Shown: positions 14,583 to 32,000 of the stretch, piece by piece
How the letters are laid out: every line of letters starts with the position of its first letter
Position numbering within the stretch: position 1 is the first letter of the stretch
Assembly (NCBI RefSeq): GCF_900289195.1
Contig: NZ_OMOH01000003.1
Coordinates: 337,099 to 369,098 of the forward strand
Direction: 5' to 3'
Source: Propionibacterium ruminifibrarum
GTDB taxonomy: Bacteria; Actinomycetota; Actinomycetes; Propionibacteriales; Propionibacteriaceae
DNA: 32,000 nucleotides
Position numbers and translations under genes: made by a program
The notes under the pieces: model-generated
What the model was told of the DNA's origin: nothing
The model's input: only the letters and a program-made list of their open reading frames with translations
Databases searched by the model: none

Positions 14583-15662
14583 ATGTTCACAACCTCCCTG
14601 GGGGTCTTCCTCTTCGGCCTGCTGGCCGCCATTGCCGGCGGAACCGTCGGCGCTGCGATCGGCGGCAACTACGCGTTCGTGCTCGTCGGTTTCTGCGTAC
14701 TCGCCTCATGGGGCATGTTCGCCGCCACCGGCAGCACCTTCGGCTTCGACTACCTGGCCTTCGGCCCCTTCATGGGGCCGCACATCGCCTTCGCAGGCGG
14801 CGTCGCGGCGGCCATCTACGCCCGCTACAAGGGACACTTCGATGACGGCAAGGACGTCAACTCCCCGCTGGCCGGCCTCGGCAAGCCCAGCGTCCTGATC
14901 GTCGGCGCCTGCTTCGGCGTCTTCGGCTACCTCTTGCAGATCGGTGTCAGCCACGTCCCGTGGTTCGGTTCCCACACCGACTCGGTCGCCTTCACCGTCC
15001 TGTGCTCCGGCCTGCTCGCTCGTATCGTCTTCGGCGGTGTTCCGGGCAAGGGCCTGTTCAAGGGATCGCTGCACAACCCCGAGGCCTTCCACGCCGACGC
15101 CACCAGCTTCCCGGCCAAGATCAAGCCCGGTCCCAACGGACGCTGGCTCGAGTGGCAGGAGAAGCCCTCGCAGCTCATCACCATCGGCTCGCTGTTCGGT
15201 GTCTTCGCGGGAGGCGCCGCGCTCTTCCTGGCCGCCAACGTCGGTGCCCATCTCACCGAGAAGGGTTTCGCCAACAACCTTGCGGCAGCGAACGCCAACA
15301 CCTTCGGTTTCGGCATCTCGGCCATCATCATCCTGTTCCTCATCACCAACCGGAACATGCCCGTTCAGCACCACGTGACGAACATCGCAGGCCTTGCCGC
15401 CGTCCAGTTCTTCCCCGTCCTCATGGGGGAGAGCTTCGCCACCTTCACCTGGACCGCCACCTCGGCCTGGGACTCGCACACCTGGTTGATGGCCTTCGTC
15501 GCGATCCTCATCGCGGGTTTCTTCGGTGTCGTCGCGGCAGCGCTCGGCGAGTTCGCCGCCCGCCTCTGGTACAACCGCGGTACGAGCCACATCGATCCTC
15601 CGGCCGCGTGCATCTGGATCAGCAACACCCTCGTCGTCTCACTGGCGGCGCTGCTGTCCTGA
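14583..15662 (+). CDS. uncharacterised polytopic integral membrane protein (about 10 hydrophobic segments), putative transporter
   Basis: AAAGGAACAAGG RBS before ATG 14583. High GC3. Gly/Ala/Phe-rich hydrophobic segments throughout. I recognise no family signature. First gene of the operon that continues into the HAD, FGGY, G1PDH-like and araB genes. Confidence 0.8.
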   Translation: MFTTSLGVFLFGLLAAIAGGTVGAAIGGNYAFVLVGFCVLASWGMFAATGSTFGFDYLAFGPFMGPHIAFAGGVAAAIYARYKGHFDDGKDVNSPLAGLGKPSVLIVGACFGVFGYLLQIGVSHVPWFGSHTDSVAFTVLCSGLLARIVFGGVPGKGLFKGSLHNPEAFHADATSFPAKIKPGPNGRWLEWQEKPSQLITIGSLFGVFAGGAALFLAANVGAHLTEKGFANNLAAANANTFGFGISAIIILFLITNRNMPVQHHVTNIAGLAAVQFFPVLMGESFATFTWTATSAWDSHTWLMAFVAILIAGFFGVVAAALGEFAARLWYNRGTSHIDPPAACIWISNTLVVSLAALLS

Positions 15663-27225: not shown

Positions 27226-27636
27226 TCAGATGCGCCCGGCCCGCCGGAGCGCGGGAATGACGTGGTCGATGAGCAGTGGCGCCTGGCGGGGATCGCCCGT
27301 ACAGTCGAGCAGATCGGTCCACTCGTACTCGGCGATCTCGTGGTCGGTGCGGGCCAGGGCGTCACGGGGCCAGTCGGCGACGTAGACAGTGCAGTGGATC
27401 TTGTCGGCGTCGCCATTGGCCGGGGCTGAGTCGAAGTCGCCCAGCAGTTCGAGGGCCTCCGGGTCGAGGTCGATGCGTAGTTCCTCGGTGGCTTCGCGCA
27501 ACACCGCATCGAGGGTGCTCTCGCCGGGCTCGATCTTGCCGCCCGGCAGGATGACGTGATCGGTTCCGCGCTTGCGCACGTTCAGCACCTCGTGGCCCCG
27601 CAGCAACGCAACCGCGGCCAACTCGAAAACCTTCAC
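27226..27636 (-). CDS. NUDIX hydrolase
   Basis: Nudix box GGKIEPGESTLDAVLREATEELRI. 136 aa. Confidence 0.85.
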   Translation of the reverse strand: MKVFELAAVALLRGHEVLNVRKRGTDHVILPGGKIEPGESTLDAVLREATEELRIDLDPEALELLGDFDSAPANGDADKIHCTVYVADWPRDALARTDHEIAEYEWTDLLDCTGDPRQAPLLIDHVIPALRRAGRI

Positions 27637-27937
27637 GTCTGCTCCTCATGCCGGATCCGTTGCGAGGTTACCCGGGATGGCGGTGTCGACGGCGTCCGTG
27701 GGGCGGGTGGCAGAGGTCTCACTCGTGGCGAACGGTCAAGGGATGGCATCGGGTGGCCAGGCGAGATGGCGAAGCCTAATCTGAACTCCATCGTCGCGGG
27801 CATCCGGTACCGCACGCGTTGGCGCTGGAAGTACCGGTATGACCACCAAAAATGTCATACTGACAGGGTCCGTTCGCGGCACAGGTACGGCCGAGGGAAG
27901 ATCCCCCAGGCGTACTGGACCAACAGAAAGGCAATCC

Positions 27938-30043
27938 GTGACCATCGCTGAAGCCGGCACAGTTCAGACCGAGAACCCCTGGCATGACTTCGTCACCGGC
28001 CCCTGGACTGAGGCCATTGACGTGCGCGATTTCATCCAGCGCAACTACACCCCTTATGAAGGAGACGCCTCCTTCCTCGAAGGCCCCACGGAGAAGACCC
28101 TCCGCGTGTGGGACCACCTGGAGAAGAACTACCTGAGCGAGGAGCGCAAGCGTCGCGTCTACGACGTCGACACCCACACTCCGAACGATGTGGACGCCTT
28201 CGGGCCCGGCTACATCAGCGAGGACGACGACGTGATCGTCGGCCTGCAGACCGACGTGCCGCTCAAGCGCGCCATGATGCCCAATGGTGGCTGGCGCATG
28301 GTCGAGACCGCCATCGGGGAGGCCGGCAAGGAAGTCGATCCCCGGGTCAAGGAGATCTTCACCAAGTACCGCAAGACGCACAACGAGGCCGTCTTCGACA
28401 TCTACACCCCCCGTATTCGTGCCGCCCGCAGCTCCCACATCATCACCGGTCTGCCCGACGCCTACGGGCGCGGCCGGATCATCGGCGACTACCGTCGCGT
28501 CGCCCTCTACGGCGTCGACAAGCTGATCGAGTGGAAGCAGGCCGACAAGGACAAGGTCGCCGACCAGCCCTTCAGCGAACACTGGGCCCGTTACCGCGAG
28601 GAGCACTCCGAGCAGATCAAGGCCCTCAAGAAGCTCAAGAAGATGGCCGCCGGTTACGGCTTCGACATCTCCGTGCCCGCCAAGAACGCCAAGGAGGCCG
28701 TCCAGTGGACGTACTTCGGCTACCTGGCCTCGGTGAAGTCCCAGGACGGTGCCGCCATGTCGATCGGCCGGCTGTCCGCCTTCCTCGACTGCTACTTCGA
28801 GCGCGACCTCAAGGCCGGTCTCATCACCGAGTCCGATGCCCAGGAGATGATCGACGCGATCGTCCTCAAGCTGCGCATCGTGCGTTTCCTGCGCACCATC
28901 GACTACGACCAGATCTTCTCCGGTGACCCCTACTGGGCCACCTGGTCCGATGCCGGCTTCGGTGACGACGGCCGCGCCATGGTCACCAAGACCTCCTTCC
29001 GTCTGCTCCAGACGCTGCGCAACCTCGGCCCGGCCCCCGAGCCGAACATCACGATTTTCTGGGACAAGGGTCTCCCGAAGGGGTACAAGGACTTCTGCGC
29101 CGCCATCTCGATCGAGACCAGCGCCATCCAGTACGAGTCCGACAAGGACATCCGCGCCCACTGGGGTGACGACGCGGCCATCGCCTGCTGCGTGTCCCCG
29201 ATGCGGGTCGGCAAGCAGATGCAGTTCTTCGGCGCCCGCGTGAACTCGGCGAAGGCCCTGCTCTACGCCATCAACGGCGGACGCGACGAGATGAGCGGCA
29301 AGCTCGTCGCCGAGGGCTTCGAGCCGGTCTCCGGTGACGGCCCGCTCGACTTCGACGACGTGTGGAACCGCTACGAGAAGATGCTCGACTGGGTCGTCGG
29401 CACCTACGTCGAGGCCCTGAACATCATCCACTACTGCCACGATCGTTACGCGTACGAGGCCATCGAGATGGCCCTGCACGACTCCGACATCGTGCGCACC
29501 CTGGGCTGCGGCATCGCCGGCCTGTCGATCGTCGCGGACTCCCTTTCCGCCATCAAGTACGCCACGGTGACCCCGGTACGCGACGAGACCGGCCTCGTGG
29601 TCGACTACATCACCGAGGGCGACTTCCCCAAGTACGGCAACGACGACGACCGCGCCGACGAGATCGCCTCGACCGTCGTCCACACGATCATGAGCAAGAT
29701 CCGCGAGATCGAGCTCTACCGCGACGCCATCCCGACCCAGTCCGTGCTGACGATCACCTCGAACGTCGTCTACGGCAAGGCCACCGGCTCCTTCCCCTCC
29801 GGCCACGAGAAGGGCACGCCCTTCGCCCCCGGCGCCAACCCGGAGAACGGGATGGACACGCACGGCATGGTCGCCTCCATGCTGTCGGTGGGCAAGCTGG
29901 ACTACAACGATGCGCTCGACGGCATCTCGCTGACGAACACCATCACCCCCACCGGGCTCGGCCGCGACAAGGAGGAGCAGGTCAGCAACCTGGTCGGCAT
30001 CCTTGACGCCGGCTTCCTCCCCAACGACTGCAACGAGTACTGA
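27938..30043 (+). CDS. pflB: pyruvate formate-lyase (formate C-acetyltransferase) catalytic core lacking the C-terminal glycyl-radical domain
   Basis: GTG 27938 follows AGAAAGG (27925-27931). Codons 27839-27937 mostly end in A/T and look non-coding. IDVRDFIQRNYTPYEGD, GRIIGDYRRVALYG, and the active-site AIACCVSPM are present. The ORF ends ...LVGILDAGFLPNDCNEY* before the RVSGYAV region. Confidence 0.9.
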   Translation: MTIAEAGTVQTENPWHDFVTGPWTEAIDVRDFIQRNYTPYEGDASFLEGPTEKTLRVWDHLEKNYLSEERKRRVYDVDTHTPNDVDAFGPGYISEDDDVIVGLQTDVPLKRAMMPNGGWRMVETAIGEAGKEVDPRVKEIFTKYRKTHNEAVFDIYTPRIRAARSSHIITGLPDAYGRGRIIGDYRRVALYGVDKLIEWKQADKDKVADQPFSEHWARYREEHSEQIKALKKLKKMAAGYGFDISVPAKNAKEAVQWTYFGYLASVKSQDGAAMSIGRLSAFLDCYFERDLKAGLITESDAQEMIDAIVLKLRIVRFLRTIDYDQIFSGDPYWATWSDAGFGDDGRAMVTKTSFRLLQTLRNLGPAPEPNITIFWDKGLPKGYKDFCAAISIETSAIQYESDKDIRAHWGDDAAIACCVSPMRVGKQMQFFGARVNSAKALLYAINGGRDEMSGKLVAEGFEPVSGDGPLDFDDVWNRYEKMLDWVVGTYVEALNIIHYCHDRYAYEAIEMALHDSDIVRTLGCGIAGLSIVADSLSAIKYATVTPVRDETGLVVDYITEGDFPKYGNDDDRADEIASTVVHTIMSKIREIELYRDAIPTQSVLTITSNVVYGKATGSFPSGHEKGTPFAPGANPENGMDTHGMVASMLSVGKLDYNDALDGISLTNTITPTGLGRDKEEQVSNLVGILDAGFLPNDCNEY

Positions 30044-30080
30044 CAGCCCCGACATCTGAACCAGAGGAGATAGAAAGAAC

Positions 30081-30332
30081 ATGTCCGTCAAGACCTACGC
30101 CGAACGCGTCGCCGACATGAAGGCCAACCGCGAGGCCTCCGGCGCGACCGATGGCCTGTACCACGCCAACATCAACGTGCTGAACCGTGAGACCCTCGAG
30201 GACGCCATCGAGCATCCCGAGAAGTACCCGAACCTCACCGTCCGCGTCTCGGGCTACGCGGTGAACTTCGTCAAGCTCACCAGGGAGCAGCAGCTCGACG
30301 TGCTGAGCCGCACCTTCCACCAGTCGGCCTGA
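30081..30332 (+). CDS. stand-alone glycyl-radical domain protein (GrcA/YfiD-like, equals the missing PFL C-terminus)
   Basis: Own GGAG RBS (30066-30069) and [60 protein letters not shown] carries the RVSGYAV glycyl-radical fingerprint. Almost every codon ends in G/C, including the unique N-terminal 25 aa. Confidence 0.88.
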
Positions 30333-30343
30333 CACGCCAACCA

Positions 30344-31207
30344 ATGACCGCTGACACGATCACGCCGGCCGGGGACAACTCCTTCAAGTCCCCGGCCCGG
30401 CGTCTTCACGGGGCAGGCCTCGATGGGATCACCACCGAGGACCTGCCCCGCGGCGCTCGCCTGGAGGCGATGCGCGAGGGCACCGTCGGGTCGATCCACT
30501 CCTGGGAGCTCGTCACCGCCGTCGACGGGCCGGGCACCCGCATGACCGTCTTCTTCGCCGGCTGCCCGCTGCGGTGCCAGTACTGCCACAACCCCGACAC
30601 CTTCTTCATGGCCAGGGGCCAGCTCGTGGCCGTGGAGGACATGCTCAAGCGTGTCAGCCGCTACCGCGGGGTCTTCAACGCCACCGGCGGCGGCCTCACC
30701 CTGTCCGGCGGTGAAGTGCTCATGCAGGCCCCCTTCGCGGCACGGCTGCTGCACGGCGCCAAGCAGAGGGGCATCCACACCTGCATCGACACGTCCGGTT
30801 TTCTCGGCGCCTCCTGCACCGACGAGATGCTCGAGGACATCGATCTGGTGCTGCTCGACGTGAAGGCAGGTGACCCGGACCTGTACGAGGAGGTCACCGG
30901 GCGGGCACTGGCCCCGACCCTGGCCTTCGGCGACCGGCTGGCGGCCAGGGGGACGCAGGTGTGGGTCCGTTTCGTCGACGTGCCCGGCCTGACCCATGAC
31001 CCCGCCAACGTGGCCGCAGTGGCCGACATCGTCGCGAAGTGGCCGAACGTCACGCGCACCGAGGTGCTCGGCTTCCACCAGATGGGCCGTGACAAGTGGC
31101 ACGACCTGGGCCTGGACTACAAGCTCGAGAACACCCCGGCCCCGACCCGTGACCAGCTCGAGGCCACCCGCGACATCTTCCGCTCCAAGGGCCTGACGGT
31201 GTACTGA
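30344..31207 (+). CDS. pflA: pyruvate formate-lyase activating enzyme (radical SAM)
   Basis: GSIHSWELVTAVDGPGTRMTVFFAGCPLRCQYCHNPDT (CxxxCxxC cluster motif), GGGLTLSGGE. Alternative start ATG 30470 (MREGTVGSIHSWE). Confidence 0.9.
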   Translation: MTADTITPAGDNSFKSPARRLHGAGLDGITTEDLPRGARLEAMREGTVGSIHSWELVTAVDGPGTRMTVFFAGCPLRCQYCHNPDTFFMARGQLVAVEDMLKRVSRYRGVFNATGGGLTLSGGEVLMQAPFAARLLHGAKQRGIHTCIDTSGFLGASCTDEMLEDIDLVLLDVKAGDPDLYEEVTGRALAPTLAFGDRLAARGTQVWVRFVDVPGLTHDPANVAAVADIVAKWPNVTRTEVLGFHQMGRDKWHDLGLDYKLENTPAPTRDQLEATRDIFRSKGLTVY

Positions 31208-31246
31208 GCTGGCCCACGAGGTGCGCATGCTGGTAGACAGGGAACC

Positions 31247-31648
31247 GTGAGCACACCCCGTGAGTCTCAGACCTCCGATGAACTGCTCCGCCATCTCGTC
31301 GGTGACCGGCTCGTCTCGGTCGCGTTCGTGCTCGACGACTACGTACAGCTCCAGTTCGACGGGGCATCCATGAACATCGAGGTGCTTCCCCACATCAGCT
31401 ACGAAGGACGCCTCTGGCGGGGCCAGGACCTCGGCTACGCCGACGCCTTCCGCAGACTCGGGGGCCACGAGGTGGTCGCCGTTTCCGGACGCGCCGGGGA
31501 GGGCCTGCGCATCCGCGTGGACAACGGCGAGATCCGCATCGACCCCGACCCCGGCGAAGCCCCCGTCGAGATCGCGAGCCTGCGCGTGGGCGACAGCCGC
31601 TGGGAGTCCTGGTACCCCGGCGAGGGCGTCTTCGAGCACCTGGCCTGA
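31247..31648 (+). CDS. hypothetical protein (133 aa)
   Basis: GTG start. High GC3. No family recognised. Lies 39 nt downstream of pflA on the same strand. Confidence 0.55.
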   Translation: MSTPRESQTSDELLRHLVGDRLVSVAFVLDDYVQLQFDGASMNIEVLPHISYEGRLWRGQDLGYADAFRRLGGHEVVAVSGRAGEGLRIRVDNGEIRIDPDPGEAPVEIASLRVGDSRWESWYPGEGVFEHLA

Positions 31649-32000
31649 ACCAGCAGGCCCTCGGCGCAGCGGCCCCGGCCGAGCGGGTCCCACCGTGATC
31701 CGGCAAGGACCGGTTCGGTGACAGCCTGTCCGGTAAGATGAACAAGGTTCCAAGCAGTGCCCCACCTGATGCGCTGCGCGGCGCCCAGCGAGGCAGCCGT
31801 ACCGTTCCCCGAGAAGATAGGCGCGTCGAGTGGCCCACAGTTCCATCGCCCTGCCCGCAGGTACGCCCGCGCAGACCACCGCTGCCACGGCGCGCCGTGG
31901 GGATATTCAGGGTTTGCGTGCGGTGTGCATGATGCAGGTGTTGGCTTATCATGCGTGGACGGTTGGTTCGCCGATTGGTGTGGATGCGTTCATCATGATC

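Follow-up and report, generated by a model that had tools for sequence, protein, structure and literature searches.

Pyruvate formate-lyase (PFL) is the founding glycyl radical enzyme, and it is still argued how its radical domain exits for activation and how a spare domain enters in its place. Here we describe a PFL locus located at positions 27938-31207 of a 32,000-nt stretch of DNA (hereafter, the window) from Propionibacterium ruminifibrarum (GCF_900289195.1, NZ_OMOH01000003.1), which probably encodes a naturally two-subunit enzyme with the radical on Gly58 of its small subunit, GrcA2. The locus resembles that of Escherichia coli PflB (1H16/2PFL) in fold family, chemistry, the Cys-Cys pair, the RVSGYAV motif, and the adjacent PflA. 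However, its radical domain is found on a separate 83-aa chain with its own translation start, its core has a short extra tail, and its small subunit has an extra N-terminal helix.

The E. coli protein GrcA, also named YfiD (6OWR), is likewise a small stand-alone glycyl-radical domain that completes a PFL deprived of its own. In work from the Drennan laboratory (Andorfer et al., 2021, PMC8683613), an engineered E. coli PFL(1-695) combined with YfiD showed wild-type activity after the radical had been put in place, and the natural break of the locus, at about E. coli residues 694-697, is almost the same as this engineered truncation. Nevertheless, YfiD coexists with a full-length PFL and is encoded elsewhere, whereas the split locus consists of adjacent genes and a naturally truncated partner. 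Moreover, YfiD has a disordered N-terminus of about 60 aa, which it requires to bind to oxygen-cleaved PFL, while GrcA2 has in its place about 22-24 aa that comprise a helix and a linker. Other glycyl radical enzymes are also multi-subunit, i.e., HPAD (gamma), BSS (beta/gamma), and MASS (beta/gamma/delta), but their small subunits are Fe-S or rubredoxin-like accessories that never bear the radical (review PMC13450708), whereas the small subunit described here is the radical domain itself. The same review, of June 2026, lists YfiD as the sole spare-part protein and does not mention split PFLs. The searchable literature yielded no account of a natural split PFL, of GrcA2 or GrcA3, or of the Protein Data Bank (PDB) entries 38LA and 38LB discussed below. 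Nevertheless, both GrcA2 and GrcA3 are curated families annotated in RefSeq, and core structures from Coriobacteriia have been deposited, so the system is less unknown than the initial annotation of this DNA implied. The architecture is real, widespread, and mislabelled, and it is neither unique to the window nor wholly unnoticed.

Two complementary reading frames

The first gene of the locus (27938..30043; all the features given here are on the + strand) starts with GTG and encodes a 701-aa PFL catalytic core, i.e., a PflB without its glycyl-radical domain. The core matches the PFL-like family PF02901 with 658.8 bits and TIGR01255 with 975.8 bits over positions 2-680 of 744, falling just under the cut-off of 994.2 because positions 681-744 are missing. 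These positions are found in the second gene, grcA2 (30081..30332), whose 83-aa product matches TIGR01255 at positions 682-743 (75.9 bits) and also covers positions 58-106 of the Gly_radical model. On the TIGR01255 profile the two pieces complement each other exactly, and the rough sum of their scores (1051.7 bits) exceeds the cut-off. The missing radical domain had been assigned to this 83-aa open reading frame (ORF) from the letters alone, and the profiles bear this out.

The alignment to E. coli PFL gives the same picture: the core aligns with residues 9-693 (862.9 bits), and GrcA2 residues 22-82 align with residues 698-758 and with YfiD residues 67-126. The core carries the active-site pair Cys417-Cys418 (AIACCVSPM, codons 29186..29191), equivalent to C418/C419 of E. 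coli and invariant in 30 aligned cores. The RVSGYAV motif is not on the core but on the separate small ORF. According to the alignment to the solved structures 1H16 and 6OWR, Gly58 of GrcA2 (RVSG58YAV, codon 30252..30254) is the equivalent of E. coli Gly734 and the predicted radical site; it is invariant in 50 GrcA2 sequences. The small protein matches the NCBIfam family NF008341, "autonomous glycyl radical cofactor GrcA2," from position 1 to position 80 of 80 (164.4 bits; cut-off 145). It stays under the cut-offs of both the GrcA model TIGR04365 (92.5 versus 170 bits), to which only the radical domain aligns, and the GrcA3 model NF038360 (102.6 versus 158 bits; positions 17-77 only). The third gene, pflA (30344..31207), starts 11 nt after the end of grcA2 and encodes a 287-aa radical-SAM activating enzyme (TIGR02493, 288.5 bits; cut-off 231.75) with its CxxxCxxC cluster motif (C74, C78, C81) at 30563-30586.

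The core ORF terminates in ...LVGILDAGFLPNDCNEY, followed by TGA at 30041-30043. When the 26 split loci presented below are compared with fused loci, the conserved LDAGF is seen to be followed in the window by a C-terminal tail, LPNDCNEY (30020..30040), that has no counterpart in fused PFLs; the mapping to E. coli PFL stops at F693. The tails differ in length and sequence among lineages and are often acidic or Cys-containing, and a Cys is present in many tails of the GrcA2 type (PNDC, PDDC, PSC). The core and grcA2 are separated by a 37-nt intergenic spacer (30044..30080; GC 0.51), which contains TGA at 30057-30059 in the frame of the small ORF, TAG at 30071-30073 in the frame of the large one, and a ribosome-binding site (RBS), AGAGGAG, at 30063-30069, located 11 nt 5' of the ATG at 30081. 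Since there are stops in both frames between them, the two ORFs cannot be joined by a single indel. The G+C content at third codon positions (GC3) is 0.92 in codons 1-25 of the small ORF, versus a GC of 0.51 in the spacer, and exceeds 0.9 in the flanking ORFs. Thus, what the initial annotation stated about the sequence all holds, i.e., the large ORF with its Cys-Cys site, the 37-nt gap, the 83-aa ORF with its own RBS and ATG, the impossibility of fusion by one indel, and the third-position bias of the first 25 residues of the small ORF. The spacer did not show significant secondary structure (minimum free energy (MFE) z = +1.0).

An upstream ATG at 27839 is an alternative start that would yield a core of 734 aa, but the GTG at 27938 is favored by the lengths of the homologues (695-706 aa) and by two of three gene callers (JGI/ENA calls). 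A palindrome, ATGAC-N10-GTCAT (27839-27858), overlaps this ATG 80 nt 5' of the favored GTG, and it could be a regulator site or due to chance. A promoter/terminator scan of 27500-31800 gave nothing exceeding the shuffled expectation, and an Rfam search of the window at gathering thresholds gave no match.

Conservation, selection, and origin of the split form

The same locus is found in four independent assemblies, i.e., the NCBI metagenome-assembled genome (MAG) GCA_015062705.1 (Propionibacteriaceae), one JGI assembly, and two ENA assemblies, with an overall identity of 99.4-99.6% and a junction that is 100% identical. Homologues of GrcA2 with 81-86 aa and 77-100% identity are found in the Propionibacteriaceae, Actinomycetaceae, and Micrococcales (Actinomycetota), and those in RefSeq bear the GrcA2 name. 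The best 120 core homologues (85-95% identity) are all 695-729 aa long.

A search of genome contigs with the core, parsed by script, retrieved 80 loci. Among the 29 loci whose core is 78-86% identical to that of the window, 26, from named species and MAGs, are split. They belong to Varibaculum, Actinomyces, Pauljensenia, Gleimia, Ancrocorticia, Arcanobacterium, Brevibacterium, Rothia, and Brachybacterium, as well as to Propionibacteriaceae and ten Corynebacterium. The remaining three are a fused gene in Sanguibacter inulinus (L013), an interrupted core (L026), and a locus that reaches the contig end (L048). All the intact split loci (26/26) have the order core-grcA2-pflA. Conversely, the 51 loci at 64-71% identity are all fused, e.g., those of Bifidobacterium, Gardnerella, Cellulomonas, Streptomyces, Kocuria, Demequina, and Microbacterium. 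As a reverse check, the GrcA2 genes of Sanguibacter hominis and two other Micrococcales were found to have 701/702-aa cores upstream. A search of a representative library with GrcA2 gave end-to-end coverage in four clusters only; the lengths of the other matches are uninformative, because most of them are fragments of the PFL C-terminus from short contigs.

Both genes are under purifying selection. The core has a ratio of nonsynonymous to synonymous substitutions (dN/dS) of about 0.12 (dN 0.122, dS 1.05), similar to fused PFLs, and the radical domain of GrcA2 has a dN/dS of 0.13. In the N-terminal region of GrcA2, the dN/dS is 0.21 for residues 1-14 and 0.57 for residues 15-24. This region contains a conserved predicted helix (aa 6-19; 30096..30137) with the consensus T[YF][ED]ERLAxMKAxR, which is specific to the split form and missing in the fused Bifidobacteriaceae and S. 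inulinus proteins, followed by a variable linker (aa 18-24). Residues M1, R9, M13, and R17 are invariant in 24 GrcA2 sequences; in a second set of 50 sequences, R9 and R17 are found in all and M13 in at least 90%. The i/i+4/i+8 spacing of R9, M13, and R17 suggests that they form one face of the helix. An AlphaFold2 (AF2) model of GrcA2, based on 50 homologues, predicts the helix at residues 6-19 with a pLDDT of 75-80, then the linker with low confidence, and finally a YfiD-like fold with Gly58 at the tip of a hairpin.

Thus, the interruption is not a lesion private to this strain among uninterrupted relatives. Given a split that is clade-wide and two pieces that are both under purifying selection, the two-piece PFL activated by the adjacent PflA, as initially proposed, is the best-supported reading. 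Its obligate character is suggested by the lack of the radical glycine in the core and by synteny.

The comparison of the junctions points to the origin of the split. The split form reads ...NLVGILDAGF, a variable tail and a stop, and then M..KTYEERLASMKANRE.., the linker, and the radical domain. When set against the fused genes of Bifidobacteriaceae, this suggests that a Bifidobacterium-type fused gene was severed at LDAG|GLYH, so that the core tail, the RBS, and the new N-terminal helix would have been added at the cut. In a neighbor-joining tree (Kimura distances, 100 bootstraps), the split loci, S. inulinus, and Bifidobacteriaceae grouped together in 100% of the replicates, with the fused Bifidobacteriaceae as the sister group. 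The split loci plus S. inulinus were supported by 92% of the replicates, and the split loci without S. inulinus by 2%. The topology within the split clade does not follow taxonomy, which, together with the 78-86% identity maintained over four orders, suggests horizontal spread. The fission of a Bifidobacterium-type fused pflB would then have been followed by its spread in Actinomycetales, Propionibacteriales, Corynebacterium, and Micrococcales.

The S. inulinus gene (L013:3866-6223) is a single fused PFL ORF of 786 codons that occupies the syntenic position of the split locus of other Sanguibacter. Its junction, LDAG-MTE-GLFHANINVL, has no core tail, spacer, or GrcA2 helix. The most parsimonious reading is a secondary re-fusion, a natural indication that both forms serve the same function and that only the broken chain requires the helix.

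Two aberrant loci were also observed. In a Trueperella MAG (L026), the core ORF ends soon after the Cys-Cys motif, yet a GrcA2 gene is found downstream; this is probably a frameshift of the MAG or a decaying copy. In a metagenome scaffold (L096:2542-4987), a split-type core, which over most of its length is 85-89% identical to the core of the window, is broken by frameshifts and followed by an 86-aa GrcA2 with a radical domain and C-terminus of the Bifidobacterium type (...QGAVVD), reflecting either recombination or a chimeric assembly.

Alternative explanations and proposed mechanism

Several observations weigh against a two-subunit PFL. The binding of E. coli PFL(1-695) to YfiD is too weak to be detected, and the activation of this pair, i.e., its radical content, is 32-fold lower than that of oxygen-cleaved PFL with YfiD (PMC8683613). 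The AF2 model of the concatenated core and GrcA2, built on a shallow alignment, was unusable (pLDDT 46, pTM 0.37) and gave no support for docking; when this model was searched with Foldseek, E. coli PFL was matched at a TM score of 0.24 only. The grouping of S. inulinus with the split Sanguibacter, which shares its synteny, has a modest bootstrap support of 65%, and was obtained by neighbor joining only. Finally, the evidence is at the level of the locus, and a full-length PFL encoded elsewhere in the same genomes might be the partner of GrcA2.

This last point leads to the strongest alternative, i.e., that GrcA2 is a YfiD-like spare part for an oxygen-cleaved full-length PFL encoded elsewhere, the adjacent core being a remnant or having a radical-independent role. 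This is how the databases read it, since the family name implies a spare part, and the radical domain of YfiD is indeed 67% identical to GrcA2 over 60 aligned residues (80.9 bits). But the core keeps an invariant active site and has a dN/dS like that of fused PFLs, and in all 26 loci grcA2 is located between the core and pflA, beside a PFL that has no radical domain and that it complements exactly. In addition, the apparent re-fusion in S. inulinus unites these two pieces in one ORF. GrcA2 does not have the 60-aa N-terminal region of YfiD and scores under the GrcA cut-off. The genomic evidence points to an integral subunit, and we consider the spare-part explanation improbable.

A programmed readthrough or frameshifting event that unites both ORFs into one canonical polypeptide is more improbable still. 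In its favor, the small ORF is in the frame of the core in 9 of the 26 split loci, with in-frame stops between them. However, in the window two stops and a change of frame would have to be bypassed. In addition, the spacers of the 26 loci measure anywhere from 4 to 148 nt, the relative frame is not constant, and each of the three stop codons occurs. In every split locus grcA2 has an ATG and an RBS of the AGGAG type, the conservation of GrcA2 starts at Met1, and the intergenic sequence is unconserved and low in GC. The varying gaps, frames, and stops fit an independent initiation of translation at grcA2 and exclude recoding. A pseudogene or a sequencing or assembly error in this strain deserves hardly any credit, since nothing beyond the interrupted gene itself speaks for it, and it is contradicted by the identical junction in four independent assemblies, the clade-wide split, and the purifying selection. 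An intein or trans-splicing was also considered and rejected because there is no extra domain and the gap is only 37 nt.

The longer spacers have a feature of their own. In those of at least 90 nt (L001, L005, L007, L008, L010, L024, and L094), a strong stem-loop follows the core stop, mostly without a T-run (MFE z-scores of -2.8 to -7.0). These stem-loops could determine the core:GrcA2:PflA ratio, either by stabilizing the mRNA or by terminating part of the transcripts.

On the two-subunit reading, the 701-aa core would provide the barrel and the Cys417-Cys418 pair, and GrcA2, translated independently from its own RBS, would supply strand beta10, the Gly loop with Gly58, and the C-terminal helix in trans. 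PflA would abstract the Gly58 hydrogen on free or docked GrcA2. The docked domain would occupy the place of E. coli residues 698-759, next to Cys417/418, and from there it would transfer the radical to these cysteines, like the fused domain of E. coli PFL. The weak binding of truncated PFL to YfiD suggests that a natural assembly in trans needs an added binding element. We infer that the helix at aa 6-19, together with the variable linker, is most likely this element and serves as a tether in place of the covalent connection that was lost.

The split might also be adaptive. The oxygen-labile radical domain would be a cheap exchangeable 9-kDa subunit, charged off the enzyme by PflA and swapped after oxygen cleavage without resynthesising the 78-kDa core; the GrcA2 and GrcA3 fissions, in actinobacteria many of which are host-associated, would be convergent solutions, and the helix would be a reversible docking handle. 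Such a benefit of a replaceable cartridge is plausible but speculative, and we put this proposal forward only tentatively, as one that may well be wrong.

Related loci, neighboring genes, and significance

In the PDB, the core is matched best by 38lb_A (739 aa) and 38la_A (687 aa), which both bear the name "Formate acetyltransferase"; GrcA2 has no match to either of them. Their aligned sequence is 100% identical to a natural 718-aa protein (P0390), whose relatives in Olsenella and Thermophilibacter have 693-698 aa. 38LB comprises all 718 aa of the core and a tag, and 38LA is the same protein without its tail; neither entry is in the fold library, which closes at 2026-04-08. In loci of Coriobacteriia (L091-L095), a truncated core is followed by a gene encoding an 80-aa Gly_radical protein and then by pflA. 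Thus, this split PFL has the same operon logic as that of the window, with a truncated core (693-718 aa), a small radical protein, and PflA.

The 80-aa protein of the Olsenella type is the NCBIfam GrcA3 (NF038360; 166 bits versus a cut-off of 158) and begins with MAASTEQVDNLVSMIDGY..GGHHLNINVF. Unlike GrcA2, it does not have the added N-terminal helix. On TIGR01255, the Coriobacteriia core covers positions 1-665 and GrcA3 positions 664-744, which means that GrcA3 carries the last helix of the core and that the cut lies about 16 profile positions earlier than in the GrcA2 type. At its end, the Coriobacteriia core has a Cys-rich acidic tail, e.g., ...GECDMCEM...PDCACAADASAKEGCEDNK or ...PAPDCGCC. 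In addition, this core belongs to a different PFL branch, with a score against the core of the window (877.9 bits) that is similar to that of E. coli PFL. The other breakpoint and the other branch suggest that the Coriobacteriia split is probably an independent fission.

With regard to the rest of the window, the region 310-25158 contains genes for carbohydrate and polyol catabolism, i.e., a triosephosphate isomerase, a dihydroxyacetone kinase (Dak1/Dak2), two FGGY kinases, an Fe-ADH-like protein, xylose-isomerase-like TIM barrels, a HAD phosphatase, three MFS transporters, and GntR/DeoR regulators. This gene content is in keeping with a fermentative lifestyle in which pyruvate is passed to PFL. 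Within it, the segment 7000-12800 has a lower GC (55-60%) than the flanking 1-kb windows (64-71%) and encodes an MFS transporter, an SDR, an enolase-superfamily (MR/MLE) dehydratase, a HpcH/HpaI aldolase, and a divergent GntR/FCD regulator; the segment has the appearance of an acquired island for sugar-acid catabolism. Two high-GC3 ORFs, 14583-15662 (+, 359 aa) and 31247-31648 (+, 133 aa), did not match any Pfam family. The latter is located directly 3' of pflA in all four assemblies of the species, and it was not found in the Micrococcales or Coriobacteriia loci with gene calls that were examined.

The deposition of 38LA and 38LB indicates that at least one laboratory is already at work on the Coriobacteriia version. 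As for the families themselves, the proteins named spare part GrcA2 or GrcA3 are more probably essential subunits, and the "formate C-acetyltransferase" of about 700 aa would be incomplete without them. This reading would correct thousands of gene annotations in Actinomyces, Corynebacterium, Rothia, Propionibacteriaceae, and Olsenella, which is relevant for metabolic reconstruction and heterologous expression. Moreover, a natural system conserved in numerous species, whose radical domain, judging from the gene structure, would always act in trans, may be a tractable model for the docking, activation, and repair of PFL.

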